The notes under the pieces were generated by a model, which saw nothing but the letters and a program-made list of their open reading frames with translations, was not told where the DNA came from and ran no database searches. The position numbers and the translations under genes are program-made. A DNA stretch of 64,000 bases from positions 704,001 to 768,000 of the forward strand of contig OY762209.1 in assembly GCA_963665295.1 (NCBI GenBank), given 5' to 3'. This DNA is from Syntrophorhabdaceae bacterium (GTDB lineage Bacteria > Desulfobacterota > Syntrophorhabdia > Syntrophorhabdales > Syntrophorhabdaceae). Of this stretch, positions 12,313 to 57,113 are shown piece by piece. Within the stretch, counting starts at the first letter, position 1. The number at the start of each line of letters is the position of its first letter.

Positions 12313-13311
12313 TTAGTGTACCCCGCCATCGCTCGTTGATAATGGCTTATTGATCCAGACGGCGTCAGGCAGTGACGCCGGTTTCGGCATCCTCCCCTTG
12401 AACCGTTCCGGATGTTTTTCATACGCAGCCCGCAGTACGTCCGTACGACCTTCAATGATCCTCAACGCTCTTCCATAATGGACGTCCTCGGGGGTGAGAA
12501 GACCTATCCCCGAATGGTAATGCTCGGTATTGTACCAGGGGAAGAATGTCTGGCAAAAGGCCCGGGCATCCTCAATGGAGCCGAACCTTTGAGGGAACTC
12601 GGGCCGGTACTTCATGGTCTTGAACTGAGATTCGGAATAGGGGTTGTCATTACTGACCGAAGGCCTCGAATGGCTCTTGGTGACCCCGAGATCGGCCATG
12701 AGCAGGGCGACGGGTTTCGACGTCATACTCGACCCCCTGTCCGCATGGATCAGGAGCTTACCGGGCTCTATCATTTGCTTCTCGCAGGTCTCCGCGATCA
12801 GTTTGCGAGCAAGGGCGGCAAGTTCCCTGTGGGCCACCATCCACCCCACCACATAGCGGCTGTAGATGTCGAGGATCACATAGAGGTAGTAGTAGGTCCA
12901 TTTTACGGAACCCTTGAGCTTCGTGATATCCCAGCTCCACGCCTCGTTGGGCGCCTTCGCGAGGATCTCCGGTTTTGCGTACCGGGGACGGGAGACCTGC
13001 CTCCTCCTTTCTTTCAGCTCACCTTCTTCTTCAAGGATCCGGTACATGGTGCGCACTGAACAGAGATAGCTCTTCTCGTCCAGGAGGGCCGCGTAGATTT
13101 CCCGGGGTGCTTTATCGATGAAGCGGTCCGAATGAAGGATATCAAGTACATCGTTCCGTTCCCCGAAGGAGAGGGCCAAGGGAGAGAGACGGTTCAAAGG
13201 TTCCTTCTCTTTCGGATGCTGCCACCGGTAAAAGCCCGCACGGGATACGTCGAGGGCGTTGCAGGCAGGGCGGATACCCACTTCATGGGCAAGCGATTGC
13301 GTGATGTTCAT
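12313..13311 (-). CDS. IS3 transposase OrfB (DDE/rve)
   Basis: PNEAWSWDITKL, ILDIYSRYVVGW, IHADRGS, SNDNPYSESQFKTMK. Confidence 0.93.
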   Translation of the reverse strand: MNITQSLAHEVGIRPACNALDVSRAGFYRWQHPKEKEPLNRLSPLALSFGERNDVLDILHSDRFIDKAPREIYAALLDEKSYLCSVRTMYRILEEEGELKERRRQVSRPRYAKPEILAKAPNEAWSWDITKLKGSVKWTYYYLYVILDIYSRYVVGWMVAHRELAALARKLIAETCEKQMIEPGKLLIHADRGSSMTSKPVALLMADLGVTKSHSRPSVSNDNPYSESQFKTMKYRPEFPQRFGSIEDARAFCQTFFPWYNTEHYHSGIGLLTPEDVHYGRALRIIEGRTDVLRAAYEKHPERFKGRMPKPASLPDAVWINKPLSTSDGGVH

Positions 13312-13706
13312 GACTTCTCCTCGCTCGACCCCTTGAGCAGCTCGGCCACTTTTTTTTGGACCTCGATAATGAGCTCCGCCTGTTTCAGTTTATGGGTGAG
13401 CCTCGTGTTCTCCTTTTCCAGTTCGATGGTGCGACGGATAAGGGGATCAGGCTTTTGTGTGACGGGTCCTCTCTTTTTCGGGATGAGGCCCTGGTGAACC
13501 TGACGCCGCCATGAGGTGAGGCTCGATGAATAAAGTCCCTCTCTGCGCAGAAGCGCCCCTATCTCACCCTTCCCGGTACAGTTCTCCACCTCCTTGAGGA
13601 TACGGAGCTTGTACGCCGCGGTGAATTTCCGGCGAACTGCCTTTTCCGGTACTTCCGGATCGGGGACTACCCTTGGTGATGCCATGACTGATTTCTTTTC
13701 TTCCAC
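13308..13706 (-). CDS. IS3 OrfA (HTH)
   Basis: RRKFTAAYKLRIL..GALLRREGLYSS; ATGA overlap with OrfB; A8G run near 13349-13357 is a possible -1 frameshift site. Confidence 0.9.
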   Translation of the reverse strand: MEEKKSVMASPRVVPDPEVPEKAVRRKFTAAYKLRILKEVENCTGKGEIGALLRREGLYSSSLTSWRRQVHQGLIPKKRGPVTQKPDPLIRRTIELEKENTRLTHKLKQAELIIEVQKKVAELLKGSSEEKS

Positions 13707-45178: not shown

Positions 45179-45532
45179 GGGGGCGATTGGTTTCGACAGA
45201 GTTGTAAGAGTCAAGGAGGCATGCCGGGTTTTCTGCCGACCCGTAAAAAAGGCGGAACTAAACACAACTGCAGACTCTCACGAGTACGCACTAGCTGCCT
45301 AGAGCAGCTACGTCATCCGGACTTTCTTCCTGCTTTAAGTCCGAGTATGGCGTCATCTAAGTAGGATAGTCTTTCCAGACACCTATAAGGAAAGGCGAAA
45401 TTTAATAGGCATGGGTGGGGTCGAACCTGTCAGTGGGTGCTTTCCCATCCGAGATTAAATCGCTGACTAAGCATGTAGGCTTTTTGGTTGCTTCTTCTTT
45501 GGACGCGGGTTCGATTCCCGCCGCCTCCACCA
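45179..45532 (+). ncRNA. ssrA: tmRNA; tag reading frame ADSHEYALAA* at 45270-45302
   Basis: 5' GGGGGCG..GGTTTCGAC; 3' GCGGGTTCGATTCCCGCCGCCTCCACCA; immediately after smpB. Confidence 0.96.
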
Positions 45533-45534
45533 TT

Positions 45535-46752
45535 TTACCTTTTATTTTCGGTATCTTCCGCACGATGATCTCGTGCGATTTCGTGCGAAGCCAATTTGAC
45601 GACCTTCCCTTCGAGAAGGTTCTTCCTGGTTGCCACTTCCATCTTTGCGTACTTGTCCACGCTGTCCATCCTGGCCCAGTCACCCGCTTCTTTGAGATCG
45701 GACTTGGAAAGACCGTACACGTTCAATAGCTGGCTCGCGCGGCTATGCTTCGTGCCGCTGTAAAGGTCTATATTTTCCCCCGCTACTTTGCAGGCTGCAT
45801 CCCAGAGCCTTTGTAAGGTCCGGGCGGTGTATCGCTTGCCCCTCTTTCTTCCACGGACCGAGACGAACATGTACGGGCTGATAATTCCATGTTCTCTTTG
45901 CTTCTCGGCTTCCACTCTTGTCCATGGTTCGAAAGCCGATACCATCGGGATCAGGTGTACCTGCTTGTCCTTGGTCCTGGTAATTTCCTGATAGTTGGAT
46001 ATGCCGCGCCAAATCTTAAAGACCCCATCTTCGAAGTCTTCCTTATAGAGCGCCATGGCCTCACCCGGCCTTCTCAGATGATACTTGAGAAACCAGAATA
46101 TCGGCTGATCCTCAACGGGAATAGCCTTAATGATCCGGTCCTGTCTGTCCTCGGGAAGCCACCGAATCACGGGGTCCACGATCTGGAAATCCTTTCGCTC
46201 GGGAAATGGGGGGATAGCCGGTATCCTTCGGGCCTTCCATGCGTACTTTAGGCAGGCATGAAGGCAGTAGATAACGTTCAGTTTTCCTTTGCCTACCCGG
46301 TTGATGGAGGACATGAGTTCCATAAGGGTGTCAAACTGGATTTCGTGAAGTTGAATCAGCTTCTTTTCAAAAAATGGCTTCAGGTGCTTGTTGATACTTC
46401 CCTTGTAGTCTTTGTAGGTAGCAGGGCTCAGCGTGGATTTGACGGCTTCAAGCCACGACTCCAGGTACGGGATGACATCCGTCTCATTGTGGGTGTACTT
46501 CTCCAGGCGAAAGCACCTATTTTCCTGGTCCCCCTGCATGGCGGACAGAAGCTTCTCGGCCAGGGCAAACCCCATGTCTCGTCCGCGATCATCGATGGCT
46601 TTGCGCATGGGCTGGCCCCGGTAAAACCAGATTTTATACGTGCGACGGTGAGGAGAATGGTACCATGACACGTAATACCGCCCTGACTTCTTGTCGAAGC
46701 CTATCAACCCTTTCATACAGATAGCGTATATTGAGGTCTCGTGCGATGTCAA
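45535..46752 (-). CDS. Tyrosine recombinase/integrase
   Basis: LSPATYKDY core-binding region, LRRPGEA, TRTKD, LYSGTKHS, GDW..SVDKY; RBS aaggagg before TTG. Confidence 0.88.
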   Translation of the reverse strand: MTSHETSIYAICMKGLIGFDKKSGRYYVSWYHSPHRRTYKIWFYRGQPMRKAIDDRGRDMGFALAEKLLSAMQGDQENRCFRLEKYTHNETDVIPYLESWLEAVKSTLSPATYKDYKGSINKHLKPFFEKKLIQLHEIQFDTLMELMSSINRVGKGKLNVIYCLHACLKYAWKARRIPAIPPFPERKDFQIVDPVIRWLPEDRQDRIIKAIPVEDQPIFWFLKYHLRRPGEAMALYKEDFEDGVFKIWRGISNYQEITRTKDKQVHLIPMVSAFEPWTRVEAEKQREHGIISPYMFVSVRGRKRGKRYTARTLQRLWDAACKVAGENIDLYSGTKHSRASQLLNVYGLSKSDLKEAGDWARMDSVDKYAKMEVATRKNLLEGKVVKLASHEIARDHRAEDTENKR

Positions 46753-47468
46753 GCTGCCCTCCTTTCCCCTTGCTCGAAGACGCAGCTTTGGAGAGCAATA
46801 ACAAAAAGGAAGGTTTCCGCTTCCCGCTTCATAAACGAACCGCCGCCCTCCTGATCATAGATGCGCTTTTCGTTCATACCGTCCCCCTTCTGAACGGAGA
46901 TTTAGGGGTATTTCCCCTTAAAAAACTTTCTTTCCTTCACAAAGCCTGGGGAAAGAAAGGGGAAGGGCATCCGGAATTAAGCGGCTGACTCCATGCATCC
47001 GGACATGACGGATACCTCCGGCGTGCCGGGTGCCAAGAGGCAAACCTTAATGGAGCGATTCAGTGCAAAGACTGAGACGGGCGCATGTGCTGACGGCGGC
47101 GGAGATTTACTCGAACCCGCAAGTTGGTCCGATATGAACTGTGGGACGGGCAGACTCAGAATCGGATCTGCCGAATGGTTGAGCGTGAGAAAGGTATCCG
47201 ATTCCTATCGATTCGCGTGTTTGTGGACCGCATAGAAAGCACCATCAGGGCGAGGATGGACTCACCTATAAGTCTACCCCACGGCCTTTTGCCTTTTATC
47301 CACCATTACCACAAGAAAGCGAGACAGGTACGATATCTGGAGTGCGTAAGAGACTTTCGCAAAAACGCCAGAAATGAGTATAATCTTATTGGCGGGTTAG
47401 GCAACGAAAAAACATGCGGAAAATGCTAATGGTTATTGCGCGGAAAAGCCAACAAGAAAATTGCATTT

Positions 47469-48275
47469 TTACAGTCTTATAAATCTTGGCTCGCCGACTT
47501 GATCTGCGGGAAAATGAGTACAAGGCCTCTGTAATACGCTCAATCGCTTATGCGGCGTTAGCTGCCCCAGATTGCCTTCATATGATAAATAGACGACATC
47601 AAAGATTGATTTAGTCCAACCGGTCACAAGATCAACAGCAAGACCGACTGCCGTGGATGCCACAACGCCATTAGCCCAAACCACCTGCGGGTTGTTTCCC
47701 GCATCACCATAACGCTTAGCCTCGATGGCAAGCTTTTTCTCAGACAGATATCCCATACACCACATGCAGGGACCACCCGGGATCGAAGCAATAATCTGGC
47801 CGCTGGCGATAGGCGGTTGGGGATCTGCCCGGTTAACATCAATTCCAACGTCTATGTATGGCGTGAGGTGCCGGCGGCTGAACGCTTCGAGTTCTTGCCG
47901 TCCTTTGAATCCGTCCACGCAGCCGAAGATAATATCGCAACCCCTAAGAGCTGCAGGATCATTTTGCCACCAGTCTCGAATCATGAGCACGTGAGCCTTT
48001 GGCTGCAGTCCGCGTATGAGTTTCCTTGCGCTCGCGACCTTTGGTGTCTTCTTTGCGACGTCCCTTACGGTTGCACCGACGAGCCGATTCAGGTTTGTTT
48101 CCTCGACCCGGTCTGGATCACAGAGAACATACTTGTTGAACCCCACGTGGGCCAGCTGCTGCACAATATGCGAACCGCCACCGCCAAGGCCCACTACTCC
48201 AACAACGCAGTTGGCGATTTTTGTCTGCGCACCTTCACCCAAGAACGACTGACGGTCATAACGATCTTCATGCAT
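47469..48275 (-). CDS. ThiF/E1-like ubiquitin-activating enzyme
   Basis: RYDRQ, VVGLGGGGS, DPDRVEETNLNRL, FGCVD..R, PYIDVG, GPCMWC. Confidence 0.9.
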   Translation of the reverse strand: MHEDRYDRQSFLGEGAQTKIANCVVGVVGLGGGGSHIVQQLAHVGFNKYVLCDPDRVEETNLNRLVGATVRDVAKKTPKVASARKLIRGLQPKAHVLMIRDWWQNDPAALRGCDIIFGCVDGFKGRQELEAFSRRHLTPYIDVGIDVNRADPQPPIASGQIIASIPGGPCMWCMGYLSEKKLAIEAKRYGDAGNNPQVVWANGVVASTAVGLAVDLVTGWTKSIFDVVYLSYEGNLGQLTPHKRLSVLQRPCTHFPADQVGEPRFIRL

Positions 48276-48789
48276 AAATGCCGCCCCCAAATGTTTGATT
48301 ATCAAGCGGATAACCGACTATGGTTACTTTCGTGACCCGCCGTGGAGAGACCTGTTTTGTCGGCCATATCAGCCCGGCGACACTGTTGAAACTGAAGACC
48401 ATCGCCCCGTGCACCGCATTCCCGCCAAGGTTATGGAATGAGGGTATTAACTTGCCAAGTTCACGACGATCAATCCTGCTGAAACTCGGCGGCCCCGAGT
48501 GTTCGTGTCGATGGACGTGAAGAATGCCCTCTTTTGTGGACAGGCTGTGTTCCATGGCATTTCGGATCGCAGCCGAGTTTATTCTTGCTCCGACGTAAGG
48601 GTCATTTATGTACTGTGTATCGGGTACGGAGAGATAATCGGTTACAAGAAGGAGGATACCTCCTTTGTCAAGAACGCTCCGCCGTGTAAACATAAACCCA
48701 ACACGTTCATGGGCAAAGGGATGCGGGCGGTCGAGATCTGCTCGCATCCCATCATAGACCAATCTTGTCATTTTTGCGTGGATCAGCAT
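48268..48789 (-). CDS. JAB/MPN metallopeptidase (Ubl-processing)
   Basis: HERVGF (catalytic Glu) and HRH..SRID (HxH..SxxD) motif. Confidence 0.8.
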   Translation of the reverse strand: MLIHAKMTRLVYDGMRADLDRPHPFAHERVGFMFTRRSVLDKGGILLLVTDYLSVPDTQYINDPYVGARINSAAIRNAMEHSLSTKEGILHVHRHEHSGPPSFSRIDRRELGKLIPSFHNLGGNAVHGAMVFSFNSVAGLIWPTKQVSPRRVTKVTIVGYPLDNQTFGGGIYA

Positions 48790-49133
48790 GTCAAACCTCT
48801 CAGGTGTGCGGCCACCATCTGTGAAAGCCTTCGATCAGTCGGCTGCAACTGCCAAGAAAAAGCATGCCATGCCCGATCCAGAATCCATGCTCCACGAACA
48901 TTCCAGTTCAGGGGTTTTCCAGACTGAACCAGTTCGGAAAAATATAGGCGTGAGTTGTAGCCTTCCCTTTGGTTGGGGCACAGCAAGACATCGACTGTTG
49001 CCGGCAGACAGTTGGGCGGCAGTTTAAGCCCTGCAATCAAGAAATAGTCATAGGTTCCCTCTTGAGCATACTTGACCCCAGGAAACATGCTCTTGAGTTC
49101 GCTAATCTCATCTTCTGGAAAAGTCGTACCCAT
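48783..49133 (-). CDS. Prokaryotic E2-like protein
   Basis: LKLP..VDVLL.P..GY..LYFS..AWHAFSW pattern resembles Prok-E2 family E; position between Ubl and JAB. Confidence 0.65.
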   Translation of the reverse strand: MGTTFPEDEISELKSMFPGVKYAQEGTYDYFLIAGLKLPPNCLPATVDVLLCPNQREGYNSRLYFSELVQSGKPLNWNVRGAWILDRAWHAFSWQLQPTDRRLSQMVAAHLRGLTC

Positions 49134-49142
49134 TTTGCCCTC

Positions 49143-49391
49143 TCACGATGATGAACCATCTTTCGGGTGGCTGATGAAGGTCTCCCCGCCCTTTATTGTG
49201 ATTCGTCCATCATCGGGCAATGGCTCGAACTTACCCTCAATCACCTGATCGAGATCATAGGCAAGCGGGATGCCAGCCAAGGTCTTGATGGCCGTGACGG
49301 TCTGATGGCCCCGGTGAATCGTGTACTGTTTGCTGTCTACTATGATTGTTACCTGGCTCTGCCCAGGCTGCCCATTTTCGTTTTGCATCAT
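49143..49391 (-). CDS. Ubiquitin-like (multi-ubiquitin domain) protein
   Basis: Beta-grasp pattern VTIIVDSKQY..TVTAIKTLAG..DD..ITIKGGETFIS; C-terminus KDG-SSS; RBS aaggag. Confidence 0.78.
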   Translation of the reverse strand: MMQNENGQPGQSQVTIIVDSKQYTIHRGHQTVTAIKTLAGIPLAYDLDQVIEGKFEPLPDDGRITIKGGETFISHPKDGSSS

Positions 49392-49545
49392 GATTCTCCT
49401 TTAGACTTAAGATAAGGGTCTTTACGACAACCTCTTTCCCTTCTATCCTCTATAGCCCAAAACTTTTTGTTTTTTTCCATGGCAAAAAGCGGGAAGTTGC
49501 GAGCACTATATATAAAGGAGGATGATCATGAGATGAGGAAGAAGA

Positions 49546-50265
49546 ATGAATAACGAGCTAGTCGAAAAACTGAAAGAGGTAGACTGGGACAGATTTATCC
49601 TCGAATTGGCACGTTTCGCATCGAAAAGGATCGAAAGGCTTTCCTGGAAACATGCCCGTATTCCAAAAGGTCTAACGGCCGATGGAATAGCCTTGCAAGC
49701 GATCGAAAAAGTGTTTGACGAAGAAAGGCGCTGGGACCCACAAAAAGATCCTGATCTCATGAAGTATTTGAAGTCAACCGTGAATAGCTTGATAAGTAAG
49801 CTTTACAAATCGAAAGAGTATCAAATTACGGAGCGATTTGAAGAAGGAGAGGACGGTGAGGACTTAATCCCATTACCAGCTGATTCGGACAGTCCCCATT
49901 CTGTAGCAATTCTTGGGCAGCCAATTGCCAACCCCGAACAGATATTACTAAAAAAAGAGGAAGAACAGCAGGCCAAGGAAATGACAGACAAGTTCCTTGA
50001 ATCTCTCGAAGACGATGAGGAGCTCGGAGAGATTGTGTTGTGCCTGCTTGAGGACATCACAAAACCCGCAGACATCGCTCAAGAACTGGGAGTCGAGGTG
50101 GAGGAGATCTATACGCGAAGGAAAAGGTTAATAAGACGCTATGGAGAATTCAAAAATATTATAAAGAAAGAAGGTATTCAATGGAGGCCAAAAACGGAAA
50201 AGGAGGGAGGTACTCAAAGTGCGTCGAGAATTTTTTTGACTTTCTCGGGGACGCCGAAGGATTGA
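49546..50265 (+). CDS. ECF-like sigma-domain protein
   Basis: Region-2-like ADGIALQAIEKV...RRWDP..LMKYL; region-4-like PADIAQELGVEVEEIYTRRKRL. Confidence 0.65.
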   Translation: MNNELVEKLKEVDWDRFILELARFASKRIERLSWKHARIPKGLTADGIALQAIEKVFDEERRWDPQKDPDLMKYLKSTVNSLISKLYKSKEYQITERFEEGEDGEDLIPLPADSDSPHSVAILGQPIANPEQILLKKEEEQQAKEMTDKFLESLEDDEELGEIVLCLLEDITKPADIAQELGVEVEEIYTRRKRLIRRYGEFKNIIKKEGIQWRPKTEKEGGTQSASRIFLTFSGTPKD

Positions 50266-50651
50266 GCGATGAGGACCTGACAAAGGACCTCCTTGCGGAG
50301 GGAATCGATCCCGAAGCGTTGCTTGCACGGGGCAGACTTATTGTGGAGACAAAACTGAAGGAGGCGAAATTATCTTGGAAAAGGAGGGCGCGCGAAAGAA
50401 TAGAATCGTTTGAACGGACAATATCTTCCGCAAAAATCGACATTCCTAATAGTCCTTCAGATGCTATGCTCAAGATTAGGGGGTTGCTCGGGAGCATCCC
50501 TGAAGGAAGCAGAATGCGTTATGCTCAATTTTATAGCAAAATGGACAAGCTTACAGAAGGGGAAGCTATATCAGTGTATCAAGACTTGCAAAAGCTAAAA
50601 CTCCTTGATGACGGAAACGAGGGGATAAGCGATGATCACTCGGGAAGCTAA
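50181..50651 (+). CDS. Hypothetical helical protein, candidate anti-sigma or peptidase substrate
   Basis: Overlaps both the sigma-like and IrrE genes; no recognisable motif. Confidence 0.6.
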   Translation: MEAKNGKGGRYSKCVENFFDFLGDAEGLSDEDLTKDLLAEGIDPEALLARGRLIVETKLKEAKLSWKRRARERIESFERTISSAKIDIPNSPSDAMLKIRGLLGSIPEGSRMRYAQFYSKMDKLTEGEAISVYQDLQKLKLLDDGNEGISDDHSGS

Positions 50652-51411
50652 TTGCCGCTCTGCCGTTTCAAAGGCGCGAGAGATTATTGGAGCACTGTTT
50701 ATCGAAGAACCTAAGGACATCGATATCGTTGCTATCGCCGCCGAAAGAGGCGCCTTCGTAAGGGAGGACCTCTTAGGCGGCGCTGATGGTCGATTAACCG
50801 TTTTTGGAACAAACGGTATCATCACCGTAAAAGCAGACATCCCCGAACAAGGGAAGAAACGGTTTGTGGTGGCTCACGAACTGGGGCATTTTGAGTTGCA
50901 CCGTGAAAACTTTGCGACCGTAAACTGCACAGAGATAGACTTTTATCAGTGGAGCAAGAACAAACCCATTGAGGTAGAAGCTAATCATTTCGCAAGCGAA
51001 GTCTTGATGCCTGAGCCGATCTTCAAAAGTAAGATAAGAAAAAAGAAGCTCTCGAAAGACCTCCTGCTTTCTTTGGCAAACGAATTTCAAACCTCTCTGA
51101 CTGCCACAGCTATCCGTTACCTTGCTTTTGGAACAGAGTACGCACTCGTAGTGTCAAAAGACTCACGAATCACTTGGTTCATAAAAGGTCGTGACTTTCC
51201 TTTCTTTATAAACACCATCGGCAACGTTCACCCCGAATCTCTTGCGTATGAGTTCTTTAAAGGAAGAGATCTTCCAGATGATTTCTTTTCAGTTTCTGCA
51301 ATAGGCTGGGTCGATAATCCTCGGATGAAGAACAGGGAGATACTGGAGCTCGCCATACCGTTACCAAGCTATAATGAAGTTTTGAGCTTCCTTTACGGAA
51401 CGTGTCAATGA
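50632..51411 (+). CDS. ImmA/IrrE-family metallopeptidase; last residues replaced by IS3 (native end YVDPDDSD*, stop at 52930-52932)
   Basis: RFVVAHELGH, EVEANHFASEVLMP, FQTSLTATAIR. Confidence 0.88.
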   Translation: MITREANCRSAVSKAREIIGALFIEEPKDIDIVAIAAERGAFVREDLLGGADGRLTVFGTNGIITVKADIPEQGKKRFVVAHELGHFELHRENFATVNCTEIDFYQWSKNKPIEVEANHFASEVLMPEPIFKSKIRKKKLSKDLLLSLANEFQTSLTATAIRYLAFGTEYALVVSKDSRITWFIKGRDFPFFINTIGNVHPESLAYEFFKGRDLPDDFFSVSAIGWVDNPRMKNREILELAIPLPSYNEVLSFLYGTCQ

Positions 51412-51435
51412 AAATGAGACACTTCCATCAGATAT

Positions 51436-52434
51436 TTAGTGTACCCCGCCATCGCTCGTTGATAATGGCTTATTGATCCAGACGGCGTCAGGCAGTGACG
51501 CCGGTTTCGGCATCCTCCCCTTGAACCGTTCCGGATGTTTTTCATACGCAGCCCGCAGTACGTCCGTACGACCTTCAATGATCCTCAACGCTCTTCCATA
51601 ATGGACGTCCTCGGGGGTGAGAAGACCTATCCCCGAATGGTAATGCTCGGTATTGTACCAGGGGAAGAATGTCTGGCAAAAGGCCCGGGCATCCTCAATG
51701 GAGCCGAACCTTTGAGGGAACTCGGGCCGGTACTTCATGGTCTTGAACTGAGATTCGGAATAGGGGTTGTCATTACTGACCGAAGGCCTCGAATGGCTCT
51801 TGGTGACCCCGAGATCGGCCATGAGCAGGGCGACGGGTTTCGACGTCATACTCGACCCCCTGTCCGCATGGATCAGGAGCTTACCGGGCTCTATCATTTG
51901 CTTCTCGCAGGTCTCCGCGATCAGTTTGCGAGCAAGGGCGGCAAGTTCCCTGTGGGCCACCATCCACCCCACCACATAGCGGCTGTAGATGTCGAGGATC
52001 ACATAGAGGTAGTAGTAGGTCCATTTTACGGAACCCTTGAGCTTCGTGATATCCCAGCTCCACGCCTCGTTGGGCGCCTTCGCGAGGATCTCCGGTTTTG
52101 CGTACCGGGGACGGGAGACCTGCCTCCTCCTTTCTTTCAGCTCACCTTCTTCTTCAAGGATCCGGTACATGGTGCGCACTGAACAGAGATAGCTCTTCTC
52201 GTCCAGGAGGGCCGCGTAGATTTCCCGGGGTGCTTTATCGATGAAGCGGTCCGAATGAAGGATATCAAGTACATCGTTCCGTTCCCCGAAGGAGAGGGCC
52301 AAGGGAGAGAGACGGTTCAAAGGTTCCTTCTCTTTCGGATGCTGCCACCGGTAAAAGCCCGCACGGGATACGTCGAGGGCGTTGCAGGCAGGGCGGATAC
52401 CCACTTCATGGGCAAGCGATTGCGTGATGTTCAT
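51436..52434 (-). CDS. IS3 transposase OrfB
   Basis: Protein identical to 12313..13311. Confidence 0.93.
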   Translation of the reverse strand: MNITQSLAHEVGIRPACNALDVSRAGFYRWQHPKEKEPLNRLSPLALSFGERNDVLDILHSDRFIDKAPREIYAALLDEKSYLCSVRTMYRILEEEGELKERRRQVSRPRYAKPEILAKAPNEAWSWDITKLKGSVKWTYYYLYVILDIYSRYVVGWMVAHRELAALARKLIAETCEKQMIEPGKLLIHADRGSSMTSKPVALLMADLGVTKSHSRPSVSNDNPYSESQFKTMKYRPEFPQRFGSIEDARAFCQTFFPWYNTEHYHSGIGLLTPEDVHYGRALRIIEGRTDVLRAAYEKHPERFKGRMPKPASLPDAVWINKPLSTSDGGVH

Positions 52435-52829
52435 GACTTCTCCTCGCTCGACCCCTTGAGCAGCTCGGCCACTTTTTTTTGGACCTCGATAATGAGCTCC
52501 GCCTGTTTCAGTTTATGGGTGAGCCTCGTGTTCTCCTTTTCCAGTTCGATGGTGCGACGGATAAGGGGATCAGGCTTTTGTGTGACGGGTCCTCTCTTTT
52601 TCGGGATGAGGCCCTGGTGAACCTGACGCCGCCATGAGGTGAGGCTCGATGAATAAAGTCCCTCTCTGCGCAGAAGCGCCCCTATCTCACCCTTCCCGGT
52701 ACAGTTCTCCACCTCCTTGAGGATACGGAGCTTGTACGCCGCGGTGAATTTCCGGCGAACTGCCTTTTCCGGTACTTCCGGATCGGGGACTACCCTTGGT
52801 GATGCCATGACTGATTTCTTTTCTTCCAC
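52431..52829 (-). CDS. IS3 OrfA
   Basis: Protein identical to 13308..13706. Confidence 0.9.
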   Translation of the reverse strand: MEEKKSVMASPRVVPDPEVPEKAVRRKFTAAYKLRILKEVENCTGKGEIGALLRREGLYSSSLTSWRRQVHQGLIPKKRGPVTQKPDPLIRRTIELEKENTRLTHKLKQAELIIEVQKKVAELLKGSSEEKS

Positions 52830-53482: not shown

Positions 53483-54271
53483 TCAAATAGTGGGCACCGG
53501 AATACGACTGAGGGGAATATTCATGGCTCCGTTTGTACAATATCCTTTTTCGGAGATTTCCTTGAGTCTCAGCGTCGACTCTTTGTCGCAAAGTCGAATA
53601 AGATAATTGAGGAGGTTATCTTGTGAACTATCGCCCTTGCCATACACAATAATGCAGTTTGATGGAAGATATGTGTCTCTGAAAATGGGCAGTGTCCTGC
53701 TATTATAATGGCCATGGTTATCAAGATCGTGGTCTGACACGAGGCAGACTGTTCGTGCAACGTTTCGCCTGTCCCGGTTAAGGCTTTCTATAATACACAG
53801 CCATCCATATTTTTCTGGAGGAATCTCCTGAGGGCAATTTCGAAAAAGAGAGGCCCCGCTCTGTGGGAATTCGACGTTATAGATGGATGGGTCCGATGTA
53901 GGTCGGACTTGACACTGGACTATTCCGCTCGCTGACACCAAATCACCACGGACTTCCTTTGTATTCGTATCTACGCCTATGATCAAGTCGAACGAGGACA
54001 AATATAGCATGAGATCGGCCTCGTTAGGGATAACCTGATCGTGTATGCGGGTGAGAACCTTTTCCTTTCCTGATTGGCCGATATAGTGCGTTTGAGAGAA
54101 AAGCACGGCAGGCTTGACCGTGCTATCGTCATAGGCAATGCCACCCTCAATCGTCATCTTCTCGCGGTCGTAATGGAAGGCTTTTATGGGCACAGGATAT
54201 CCGACTATGGCAGTGTGTAGCCTTGGTTTCTTGGCGGGATTGCGGTTCTTGTGTTTCTTGCTTCGCCCCAT
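53483..54271 (-). CDS. Hypothetical protein, possible RNase H-like fold
   Basis: 262-aa ORF; IIGVDTN and LVSDHD acidic strand-end motifs. Confidence 0.6.
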   Translation of the reverse strand: MGRSKKHKNRNPAKKPRLHTAIVGYPVPIKAFHYDREKMTIEGGIAYDDSTVKPAVLFSQTHYIGQSGKEKVLTRIHDQVIPNEADLMLYLSSFDLIIGVDTNTKEVRGDLVSASGIVQCQVRPTSDPSIYNVEFPQSGASLFRNCPQEIPPEKYGWLCIIESLNRDRRNVARTVCLVSDHDLDNHGHYNSRTLPIFRDTYLPSNCIIVYGKGDSSQDNLLNYLIRLCDKESTLRLKEISEKGYCTNGAMNIPLSRIPVPTI

Positions 54272-54369: not shown

Positions 54370-55587
54370 TGTCACGTCACTCATCTAATGTCGGATAAAG
54401 TCGCCTAAGTTTCACCCGCGCATCCTTAGTAGTAAATTGCCAGTTCACCTTTGCGTTGAGATTGTCGCGATGGGCCTGCCAGGCAGACACGGCGGAGTGG
54501 ACCTCGGCGAGAGTGTCGATCCGGCGACTCAGGCATTGATGAATGAGCACGTTAAGCTCAATCTCCGCCATATTGAGCCAGCTTCCATGTTTGGGAGTAT
54601 AGACGAATTCAAAGCGGTCCCAGATGCGTTTGGCCTCTTCGGGAGAAAAGGCTTCATAAAGAGAGCCGGGTTTATGGGTGTTCAGGTTATCCATGACAAG
54701 GGTGATCCTTTTGGCCTTTCCATACCGTCCTGAAAGTTCCCGGATGAACTCCGCCCAGTCGCGCTTCGTTCTCCTTTCCGATACCTTGGTCAGGCGCGTG
54801 CCCGCCAATGGTTCGTTGGCCATAAATACGGTACAGACGCCACATCGCTCGTATTCGTAGTCGTGACGCTCGAGCCGTCCCGGAGCGCGGGGAATCGGGG
54901 TACGCGTTTCTTTGATCAGTTGTCTTGGGGTTTCATCCATACAGACCACCGGGAATCTTTTATCATACGGGCGTTTATATACATCGAGTACGTTCTCCAT
55001 GGCGGCGACGAAATCAGCATTGCCCTCCGGTGGAATGACCCATCCTTGCTGCTTCCAGGGTTTTGTTTCGTTTTTTTAAAACCCGACGCACGGTTTCATA
55101 GGAGATATTCTCGATATAATTGAGCGCTACGGCCCGGTTCGCGAGCATACGCAAGGTCCACCTCGCAAAACCTTCTGGTGGTTCGCTACAGCTCAAGGCA
55201 ATGAGGTGGGCCTCGAAATCGCCATCCGCCTTCTTCTCGTAGACTCGCTCTGCTTTGTGTCCGGTAAGGGCAGTCTCAAGTCCTTCTTCCACGAATCGCT
55301 TTTTTACTCTATCTATCTTACGCATGCTGATTCGCAACACTGCCGATATATCCTCGTTCTTCATCGGGTGGTCCTGGAACCGGCCCTGATCGCAATTGAG
55401 AAGAACCAGCGCATTGAGCACCTTTTGGGCTTTATGATTTCCTTTTTGCACCACGCCTTCAAGTTCCTTTCGCTCTTCTTTTTCGAGCACCACCCTATAT
55501 TTTATCATTCGGACCTCCCCATGGTGAAATTTAACCCTTGAGGAGATTCTATATCATACTATACGACATTACAAGTGTGATGTGACA
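54370..55587 (-). mobile_element. IS630-family element, two-ORF type
   Basis: IRs tgtcacgtcac / gtgatgtgaca; CTAG at 54366-54369 and 55588-55591. Confidence 0.92.
54377..55508 (-). CDS. IS630 transposase, split by a probable programmed -1 frameshift
   Basis: HTH ORF 55014-55508; TTTAAAAAAAC near 55070-55080 shifts into KNETKPW...VVCMDE..VMDNLNTH..HGSWLNMAEIE. Confidence 0.88.
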
Positions 55588-56258
55588 CTAGAAACACATT
55601 CAAGTTCTTATCAATATACTCCGTTCTCGATTTGTATTCCTTGGCCAATCGCATGCCCTGTCTACTTGCGGCTTTGAAAGCTCTTTGCATAGCTGCAGCG
55701 TTTTCTTCAAGGTCCCACCATATGTCTTCGATATCTACCCACTGGTATCCGTCGTTGAATGCTAACCTGATGAAGGTTTTGTGTGTATTTATATGTCGAA
55801 GTTCAGTATCGTCATTCAGTACTCTTAGGACGCGCTTCAACGGAGTAATGGAAACGTTTACCGTTTTGCGCAAAGAAGCCAATGCTTTCTGCTGTTGGCT
55901 GGGATCCCTCAACATTCTCTTTGTCGTTTTGCTAACCTCTCCGGATAATGACGCGAGAAACGAGAATAATCTCTCTGCAAGCTCGTAAGACGACGTATGG
56001 TAATTTTGGAGCTGGTAGTGCAGACGTAGAATGGAATGCAAGTCCTTCAAATTGCTCATACCTCTTTCGAACTCACTTACGGAGAATTTGAGCCGTATGA
56101 GGGCATGGCCCAACTCCCCCCAATGAGCCATTACCCCTTCCTCAGGCTGTATTTCACGGTAATGGACTTTCAGAATATGAGGCATGTCAACGTTCTCGAT
56201 CAAGATTAATATTCATTGTGCCATTGAATGCGGTATATCAAATATTCCACCCAACGTT

Positions 56259-57113
56259 TCAGGTATGACGTGGTTCAATTCCTATGCCCTTTTTAGTGAG
56301 TAGCGTTTTGCTCTTGTTGAAGTAATATACTGCTTTATCAAAGGCTTCACCGGGGAATAAATAGTCTCTGCTGAGAAAGGCGCCATTGGACCATAATTTA
56401 AGGAGATCCCTCTGTACAACGATTGTTGCCAACCTCAGGTGCTCAAAAGACCTGCCATTGGACAACGGGTCTGCAAGGCGCATAGAGAATCCTTGTTGTA
56501 AGTGCGGTCTAAGCCAGTCAGCTGGCTTTAGTCTTAGATCTTTGACTATGGCGATGCCAGCAACGCTACGAGGATAGGCTATTAAATAGAGGAATCCCGT
56601 ACTGTCTTCAATGCTGGAACCATCGAATGCATTATTGCTATCATGATACGCAAACCACAATGCTGTTTGAATGTGGTCGACCACGTCTATCCAACGGGTT
56701 TTTAGGCCGTAATGCTGGGCAAGGGCCTCTCGCTCTTCATCCGTGCCAATAGGATCAAAGGTGGGCGCAATAGCGTTGATTACATCGTTGATCCATGTTT
56801 GGTTGGCGTTAATCTGTAAATGTGTTTTGCACCCACGATATAATGAAGGAATAAGTGGATGATTTTTTGTCTGGCCTCTTAGCAGAAAATCCGTGTCCAT
56901 CGTATGCAAGTGGTACTTGAGGCTTCCTATAGCCAACATCAGACCCCTATAATCATAGATGTTTAGGACCGCCCTCTCGGTAGACCGATTGGAGTAATTA
57001 CCCCAATTTCGCTTCACCAGTTCGGTTACTATGGTTTTGTCGATTATGCCTTTGATTCTCCGTTTCTGTGACGCTGAAAGCCAAGGCAGCTCAGCAGTGG
57101 GCATTACGGACAC
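56259..57113 (-). CDS. FRG domain protein
   Basis: LLRGQ..PLIPSLYR, ALAQHYGLKTRWIDV..ALWFA, RPHLQQG, LFP. Confidence 0.85.
   Translation of the reverse strand: MSVMPTAELPWLSASQKRRIKGIIDKTIVTELVKRNWGNYSNRSTERAVLNIYDYRGLMLAIGSLKYHLHTMDTDFLLRGQTKNHPLIPSLYRGCKTHLQINANQTWINDVINAIAPTFDPIGTDEEREALAQHYGLKTRWIDVVDHIQTALWFAYHDSNNAFDGSSIEDSTGFLYLIAYPRSVAGIAIVKDLRLKPADWLRPHLQQGFSMRLADPLSNGRSFEHLRLATIVVQRDLLKLWSNGAFLSRDYLFPGEAFDKAVYYFNKSKTLLTKKGIGIEPRHT

Follow-up and report, generated by a model that had tools for sequence, protein, structure and literature searches.

Which conjugation system is encoded by a compact bacterial operon whose ubiquitin-like protein (Ubl) ends in three serines, and how could such a protein be attached to a target? 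The question is raised by four genes, for a Ubl, an E2, a JAB peptidase and an E1, found in a stretch of 64,000 nucleotides from a Syntrophorhabdaceae bacterium (GenBank assembly GCA_963665295.1, contig OY762209.1, positions 704,001 to 768,000), called the window below. Our analysis identifies them as a Ubl-E2-JAB-E1 conjugation operon of the Bub lineage, and not of the Bil one. Taken as a whole, it is probable that they represent a Bub branch devoid of BubE, in which a Ser-ended Ubl would be carried as oxyesters on Tyr189 of the E1 and Ser93 of the E2, the JAB peptidase would erase conjugates, and expression would be induced through a CapP peptidase and a sigma factor. The labels crossover loop, anti-sigma and JAMM motif are ones that we take to be appropriate here, from general knowledge and from the papers cited. 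Statements on 10.1101/2023.09.26.559546, 10.1101/2023.09.04.556158, 10.1101/2022.04.27.489752, PMC10648299, PMC13373217 and Table S2 of Ye et al. refer to the portions of these sources available to us.

All four genes lie on the minus strand (Table 1), with a gap of 9 nt between the Ubl and E2 genes, an overlap of 7 nt between E2 and JAB and one of 8 nt between JAB and E1. A preliminary description made from the sequence alone had reported this coupling, which the lengths of the open reading frames (ORFs) and the spacing bear out, and all the motifs that it quoted are present (CMWC, KRYGDAG and RPCTH in the E1; LLCP, AFSW and a terminal Cys in the E2). Relatives were collected by searching representative genomes with an E1 alignment; 260 were found, and the best 80 of these 260, from many phyla, are the loci analyzed here (81 with the window). 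They were picked by their E1 only, and their gene content was judged with purpose-built ORF profiles. A scan of representative-genome contigs with a single protein found no relative, whereas the alignment-based scan did. The same four separate genes stand in the same order in 71 of the 80 E1-selected loci, so that the unit is a conserved operon and not a chance assembly; the other loci have a JAB-E1 fusion (five), an E2-JAB fusion (one) or an incomplete set near a contig end (three). A BubB-like E2 is present in the operon at 80/81 loci. Natural Ubl-E2 fusions are rare, two being known among the relatives, and GSS is retained at the joint.

In Pfam, the E1 matches ThiF (E 6e-29) and the Ubl matches Multi_ubiq weakly, below the cut-off (E 7e-4); the E2 and the JAB protein have no Pfam or NCBIfam match and no credible PADLOC match. 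Contigs from two public sequencing runs span positions 47146-51425 with zero mismatches, but these runs may be the source sample and are not counted as independent support. Cultured carriers exist: the whole operon is found on plasmid pSHV1 of Sphingobium herbicidovorans, and one protein of Geotalea daltonii FRC-32 matches the Ubl. The E2 gave no match in a sample of 400 further genomes from the phylum of the window, as expected for patchy mobile cargo.

The E1 is closest to Citrobacter BubCD, both by sequence among the entries of the PDB (E 2e-15, or E 2.5e-22 with a profile) and by fold, BubCD being the top Foldseek match (E 3e-19) of its model (predicted local distance difference test, pLDDT, 91). 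It is a single domain of 268 residues with a short Cys-free loop. Tyr189, in the KRYG motif of this loop, is invariant in 119/119 E1 homologs and in 80/80 locus E1s, and the surrounding loop is Cys-free in 79 of the latter. Residues 189-193 are modelled with a pLDDT below 50, and in BubCD the loop that holds Tyr370 is likewise disordered (Ye et al., bioRxiv 10.1101/2024.11.21.623953). The preliminary description was right that no Cys follows CMWC in the loop; it had overlooked the Tyr of KRYG, whose invariance points to a Bub-type oxyester chemistry. The only later Cys, that of RPCTH (Cys252), occurs in 80/80 locus E1s, paired with an invariant His254, in the position that a second CxxC occupies in control BubD proteins. 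As this pair stands opposite the CxxC and BilD offers a precedent for a zinc site (10.1101/2023.09.26.559546), Cys252 is most plausibly a zinc ligand; Cys170, Cys173, Cys252 and His254 would form a predicted zinc site. The E1s of the 80 loci form a clade of their own, separate from the Type I E1s, and Type II is distant; this is a quick tree only, in which the sister group of the clade is unsettled and long branches meet. The P-loop reads GLGGGGSH. We rejected the idea that GLGGGG makes room for a Ser end, Ser-ended Type II proteins keeping GxGGTG like Gly-ended systems.

PDB sequence searches with the E2 or the Ubl, as single sequences or as profiles, gave no credible match; the link between the E2 and BubB thus comes from structure comparison and not from sequence search of the PDB. 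The E2 model (pLDDT 82) matches BubB (9eav_D) with a Z-score of 12.5 and a root mean square deviation of 3.2 over 114 aligned residues, the next-best fold match among 48,161 chains having a Z-score of 7.3, and Foldseek retrieved BubB with the same model at E 4.6e-3 only. Comparison by profile and structure, which the preliminary description had called for, accordingly gives BubCD and BubB as the best solved relatives of the E1 and the E2. A profile of the E2 family aligns with eight Type I-like BubB proteins (probability 96%) and places Ser93 on the catalytic Ser of their WSRH motif, and no alignment was obtained with seven Type II BubB proteins (probability 0.1%). Ser93 is kept in 129/130 E2 relatives. 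Three nucleophiles had been left open, the Cys of LLCP, the terminal Cys and the Ser of AFSW; the Ser is favored, by its conservation and the BubB register. Judging from the alignment, the cysteines seem too little conserved for a catalytic role, a terminal Cys being found in 9/130 E2s and two of the 130 having no Cys at all. Candidate helpers for activation of Ser93 are His110 (112/130) and Arg62 (117/130). Given an invariant Tyr189 in a loop without Cys, and Ser93 aligned on the catalytic Ser of BubB, it is very likely, by analogy with Bub, that the transfer would proceed through Tyr and Ser oxyesters.

The tail of the Ubl was numbered relative to the E-x-F anchor in the last strand and compared in 76 distinct Ubls from loci chosen by E1 (79 found, duplicates merged, window included). 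Position +10 is Ser in 73, Ala in three and Gly in none, while +9 is Ser in 65, Ala in 10 and Gly in one; 71/76 end exactly at +10, five are longer and none is shorter. In a second set of Ubls, collected with a profile that favours such tails, +10 is Ser in 58 and Ala in six (n=64 of 68, the own protein and three unanchored ones being dropped). The terminal Ser uses all four TCN codons, and no AGY codon occurs at +9 or +10; a codon test for independent origins of this Ser was discarded since, without AGY codons, it shows free third positions only.

The Ubl family profile matches the BubA domains of Type I-like operons. Gly229 of Citrobacter BubA, the end of which was fixed by Edman sequencing (Ye et al., 10.1101/2024.11.21.623953), falls at +10, and P-K-D at +4 to +6 is common to both (Table S2, Ye et al.). 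Among 12 Type I-like control Ubls, eight have Gly at +10, three have Gly at +9 and one ends in Ser at +9. Ser is the last residue, at +8, of all eight Type II control Ubls. The E. coli Type II BubA likewise has a Ser end (Table S2, Ye et al.), and it was conjugated in vitro with BubBD and ATP alone, with no peptidase (10.1101/2024.11.21.623953); no remark on this Ser end was found in the text of the preprint.

The preliminary description had proposed that JAB removes SSS to expose a Gly. This would leave the Tyr/Ser chemistry as it is, JAB stripping three serines and conjugation occurring via Gly79. Several points weigh against a Ser end and in favor of such trimming. The commonest residue is Gly both at +7 (56/76) and at +8 (45/76, the remainder there being Ala, Ser, Cys, Gln, Lys and Thr). 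In addition, +8 is where Type II tails end, a Ser-Cys cap following the Gly is removed from pro-UFM1 (PMC10648299), and trimming to Gly by JAB has been shown for Bil and for Type I Bub (10.1101/2023.09.26.559546, 10.1101/2024.11.21.623953). A capped Gly is indeed possible in many relatives. However, 12/76 tails have no Gly at +7 to +10, 10/76 have none anywhere, and none ends at Gly. The supposed cap would moreover be fixed in length, with a conserved last residue, whereas the caps published for Type II BilA are variable in length, reaching nine residues (10.1101/2023.09.26.559546), and no control Ubl ends at +7. With Ser or Ala at +10 in 76/76 and ten tails free of Gly, the removal of SSS is not supported: the final Ser is a conserved, length-fixed position in register with Gly229 of BubA. 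We therefore consider conjugation via Gly79 improbable.

In the window Ubl, +8, +9 and +10 are all Ser and +7 is Gly. Each register seen in the controls consequently gives a Ser end; a Gly end would require +7, which no control uses. That the window Ubl works through a Ser end is in our opinion highly probable. We lean towards the last one, Ser82, as the working end; a one-residue cap, as in the BilA of E. aridi (10.1101/2023.09.26.559546), would be rather unlikely, and a two-residue cap more doubtful still.

The chemistry attributed to Tyr189 and Ser93 also meets objections. The margin of the E1 fold match is small, ThiF following closely behind BubCD (E 4e-17 versus 3e-19). In an alignment with four Type I controls, Tyr189 is two columns off the Type I loop Tyr and beside a gap, so that both residues belong to the same loop but are not proven to share a column. 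The helpers of Type I, His(+2) and Asp, are not kept in the E2, where the +2 position is Gln in 40, Lys in 31, Arg in 26 and Asn in 17 of the 130 relatives and the Asp column falls on a gap. Finally, some cysteines are fairly conserved, namely Cys113 of the E1 (75/80) and Cys52 (97/130) and Cys42 (88/130) of the E2.

The missing helpers and the inexact Tyr alignment could mean that the E1 hands the adenylated Ubl straight to the E2 or the target, Tyr189 or Ser93 being structural and not covalent carriers, and the Bub preprint itself inferred oxyesters from mutants and structures and did not trap them (10.1101/2024.11.21.623953). Over many phyla, nevertheless, both residues are fully or almost fully conserved, and in either Bub type conjugation is lost with the corresponding mutants (10.1101/2024.11.21.623953), which leaves a slim chance to this explanation.

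A thioester pathway of the Bil kind, via Cys252 (or Cys113) of the E1 and Cys52 of the E2, would fit the BilABCD gene order, the presence of Cys252 in 80/80 E1s and the frequency of Cys52. In Type I and Type II BilABCD (10.1101/2023.09.26.559546, 10.1101/2023.09.04.556158), the four genes are likewise separate and identically ordered. Bil is described as having a three-part E1 (IAD, AAD and a CYS domain with the catalytic Cys), an E2 with a conserved catalytic Cys and a Ubl with a Gly end, and the operon of the window has none of these; in particular, the IAD and CYS domains of BilD are missing from its E1 (10.1101/2023.09.26.559546). Phage protection through the tagging of tail proteins is a further trait of Bil. 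Cys252 and the invariant His254 stand opposite the CxxC where controls have a second CxxC, the C-terminal cysteines of BilD bind zinc (10.1101/2023.09.26.559546), Cys52 is absent from 33/130 E2s and two E2s are Cys-free. This pathway is thus very unlikely. The match of the gene order with both Bil and Bub, as first described, places the operon in the described Ubl-E2-JAB-E1 class, but its likeness to BilABCD is confined to that order. Least likely of all is a sulfur-carrier or small-molecule pathway of the ThiS/ThiF kind with no protein conjugation: the ThiF fold and ThiF-like size of the E1 would allow it, against a BubB-like E2 at nearly every locus, the lack of a terminal Gly-Gly, and a neighborhood in which no biosynthetic gene recurs and CapP does (59/81 loci).

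The JAB protein, for which the Atlas gave a Prok-JAB lead, aligns with the BubC portion of four control BubCD proteins. Of 74 sequences, 72-74 retain each of its residues Glu28, His91, His93, Ser104 and Asp107, a family-specific His95 being found besides, and this conservation indicates that it is probably an active zinc peptidase. Every Bub operon has been stated to possess bubE, of the DUF6527 family (10.1101/2024.11.21.623953). However, PF20137 was not found in the genome of the window (G000, 98% complete), nor was it in 400 sampled genomes of the phylum. A profile built from four control BubE proteins, which finds 12 control ORFs (three of them its own seeds), detected none in the ORFs of the 80 loci, in the window span or in this genome. 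BubE occurs in 5/50 locus genomes searched, and the three placeable ones sit in separate Type I or Type II Bub operons. As bubE is missing from it, the operon falls into neither defined Bub type, though it would work like one.

Comparison with Type I Bub (6E.1; BubAB, BubCD and BubE of Citrobacter sp. RHBSTW-00271; PDB 9EA4, 9EA8, 9EAE and 9EAV; 10.1101/2024.11.21.623953) reveals the same Ubl-E2-JAB-E1 order, a minimal E1 with a loop Tyr and no loop Cys, the E2 fold with its Ser, the JAB motif, a tail length of +10, the CapP linkage and a mobile element at a stable-RNA gene. The operon of the window differs in that no BubE was found, the four genes are separate, the Ubl ends in Ser and not in Gly, the E2 lacks the His and Asp helpers, and the E1 has Cys-x-His as second zinc pair, the GLGGGGSH P-loop and a separate clade. 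The conserved Gly229 position is Gly in 0/76 relatives. The BubAB and BubCD fusions are not constant among the controls. Type II Bub (6E.2; BubA, BubBD and BubE of E. coli ZDHYS365; 10.1101/2024.11.21.623953) shares the Ser-ended Ubl and the Tyr/Ser chemistry predicted here, but it fuses E2 to E1, has BubE, usually lacks JAB and has a tail two residues shorter; the E2 profiles did not align and its E1 is distant. The suspicion that this could be a distinct variant of a described class is hence borne out by the lack of a detectable BubE, the unfused genes and the E1 clade.

PADLOC gave no Bil-named match to the window, its library giving no specific match for a known Bub control either, and viral contigs scanned with control BubCD gave no match. 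Our literature search, in which the Bub paper was covered as a preprint only and whose journal version may treat the matter, found no description of a Bub branch that lacks BubE or has a Ser-ended Ubl. Both the class and the chemistry had been published before, and the BubE-less, unfused, Ser-ended branch appears new. It is tentative at best to go further and to see in it a third type of Bub, widespread among phyla and overlooked by current profiles, with a Ser-ended four-protein cascade working through Tyr and Ser oxyesters, an E2 active site without either known set of helpers, a JAB eraser and, here, phage defence induced by single-stranded DNA (ssDNA) through proteolytic release of a private sigma factor.

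Two other arrangements were noticed among the loci. At L140 (G818:C16:126000-132500), a Ubl of three domains has HEDS as its end, with no Gly, and adjoins a JAB-E1 fusion outside the clade; it is another Ser-ended branch. On two plasmids (L085 and L087), the Ubl and E2 genes of the Bub operons are unfused, and E1 and bubE are separated by a gene for a phosphotransferase; the last residues of the E2 are WFSWH, and the Gly of the Ubl is at +9.

The genes for a sigma-like protein, a helical partner and CapP are divergent from the Ubl gene and replace CapH/CapP. Some same-slot relatives of the sigma protein match Pfam Sigma70_r2/r4. The 156-aa partner is weakly similar to the partners at other sigma loci; it has no Pfam match, and the Atlas gave only unnamed clusters below 0.9. 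No Pfam helix-turn-helix (HTH) match was obtained for it and 12 other partner genes, and 16 genes in the CapH slot match HTH_3. With a CapH-type HTH profile against 18 partners, the best E-value was 0.006 and that of the window partner was 1, a very diverged HTH being possible. Classification of the 81 loci gave CapP with HTH at 41, CapP with sigma at 17, all three at one, sigma alone at four, HTH alone at six, none at 10 and no Ubl at two. Sigma and HTH thus occur together at only one of the 59 CapP loci; the sigma profile was seeded from the same 81 loci, a partly circular procedure that weakens these sigma counts.

Prediction of the sigma-partner complex gave a score of 0.76, versus 0.25 for the best control, with a partner pLDDT of at least 71; this mark was reached by 51/78 solved pairs versus 2/108 mismatched pairs, and the runs agree in at least 87% of the contacts. 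Partner residues 9-63 are predicted to contact the N- and C-terminal parts of sigma. The predicted complex supports binding of the two proteins, and its contacts would fit an anti-sigma. [quoted passage not shown] (bioRxiv 10.1101/2022.04.27.489752). As with the CapH and CapP described there, the CapP peptidase is divergent from the operon, but no HTH could be detected in the window partner, for which binding to sigma is predicted. The switch would then work by release of an activator and not by cleavage of a repressor. By analogy, we slightly favor release of sigma by CapP as the switch; no paper on an anti-sigma cut by CapP was found in our literature search.

The near-palindrome of the divergent promoter region recurs at one other of the 80 loci (L026, a close sigma relative) and in none of 100 shuffles of the window; a scan for sigma-70 promoters stayed at chance level. 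At three loci (L013, L018 and L023), a sigma-like gene and then two larger recurring genes lie upstream of the Ubl, with no recognisable partner or CapP. Inverted GTGACA...TGTCAC pairs, unlike the palindrome of the window, were seen by eye between sigma and Ubl at four loci (L007, L010, L029 and L067), and are possible sigma-specific promoter elements.

We propose the following scheme, for which the genes, conservation, fold matches, register and context come from this locus and its relatives, and the steps from adenylation to ligation (Bub) and activation by ssDNA (CapP) from relatives only. An E1 homodimer would adenylate the C-terminal Ser of the Ubl. As the working end is most likely the last encoded Ser, no trimming would be needed on the window Ubl. 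Tyr189, in the mobile crossover loop, would take the Ubl as an oxyester and pass it to Ser93 of the E2, which would ligate it to a target lysine without an E3. The JAB peptidase would remove conjugates, filling the role of BubE, and would also trim the few relatives with extensions or Ubl-E2 fusions. As for expression, ssDNA would activate CapP, CapP would cut the partner, and the sigma factor so freed would allow expression of the operon.

Table 1. Operon, regulatory genes and insertion site (positions in the window)
Feature	Position	Strand	Remarks
Left attachment repeat of the element, tmRNA 3' end	45507..45536	plus	30/30 bases identical with partner
tmRNA	45179-45532		insertion target at 3' end
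Tyrosine integrase of the element	45535..46752	minus	Pfam Phage_integrase and Phage_int_SAM_3
E1 (BubD-like), adenylation domain only	47469..48275	minus	268 aa counted from ATG
JAB/JAMM peptidase (BubC-like)	48268..48789	minus	173 aa
E2 (BubB-like)	48783..49133	minus	116 aa; predicted catalytic Ser93
Ubl (BubA-like), putative single beta-grasp domain	49143..49391	minus	82 aa; C-terminus KDGSSS; functional end predicted at Ser82, or else Ser81
Divergent promoter region	49392..49545		holds 18-bp near-palindrome at 49471-49488
Sigma-70/extracytoplasmic function (ECF)-like protein	49546..50265	plus	239 aa; TIGR02937 E 6e-6, below cut-off
Helical partner in CapH slot, candidate anti-sigma	50181..50651	plus	156 aa
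CapP-type M78 metallopeptidase	50632..51411	plus	259 aa; PADLOC capP E 2e-59; Pfam Peptidase_M78

The operon lies 2 kb inside an element bounded by 30-bp direct repeats about 63.5 kb apart, the right one being outside the window (G000:C1:812996-813025). It contains Trb genes, a MobF relaxase, the TraD coupling protein and a bacteriophage exclusion (BREX) cluster. The integrase at the transfer-messenger RNA (tmRNA) gene, the repeats and the transfer genes uphold its first description as a conjugative element, and from these genes and repeats we identify it as an integrative and conjugative element (ICE) carrying defence cargo. The BREX cluster (BrxP, BrxC-PglY, PglZ and BrxL; G000:C1 ~791190-801434, or L142:6190-16434, minus strand) has strong PADLOC matches, and PDC-S02 and PDC-S57 candidates lie near it. 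Copies of the insertion sequence (IS) IS630 lie between trbJ and trbL (L141:1789-2917) and just after traD (L141:13908-15036), and may impair transfer of the ICE. An FRG-domain protein (window 56259-57113) has PADLOC PDC-S15 matches and is adjoined by low-GC ORFs at 53483-54271 and 55559-56203 with no family match. The ORF pairs at 12313-13706 and 51436-52829 have identical lengths (332 and 132 aa); the latter is an IS3-type transposase pair with a much higher read depth, and is probably a multi-copy IS. Short stretches at 46900-47171, between the operon and the integrase, are common to other contigs of the same sequencing runs, which points to related elements in those samples. Close to the right end of the ICE lies an ORF of 1868 aa with a KaiC-like region (L143:2140-7743).

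Our proposal is weakest as to the biological role. The context suggests a defence or stress response, and an inducible phage or stress defence carried by the ICE is a likely role, the chances being about even for an antiphage function proper. It counts against the latter that none of the Bub operons is reported to have given E. coli protection from phage (10.1101/2024.11.21.623953, PMC13373217).

What would be the interest of such a system? A C-terminal glycine has been called obligatory for Ubl conjugation, in the accessible part of 10.1101/2023.09.04.556158. The widespread, conserved Ser end described here, together with that of Type II BubA, makes this rule testable with four small proteins (82-268 aa) and their point mutants. 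BubE erased conjugates in co-expression (10.1101/2024.11.21.623953), and a BubE-less operon removes this conjugate-erasing protease. Neither a target nor a phenotype is known for Bub operons; should native expression depend on ssDNA and a private sigma factor, it may be important for phage tests to clone the regulator together with the operon.

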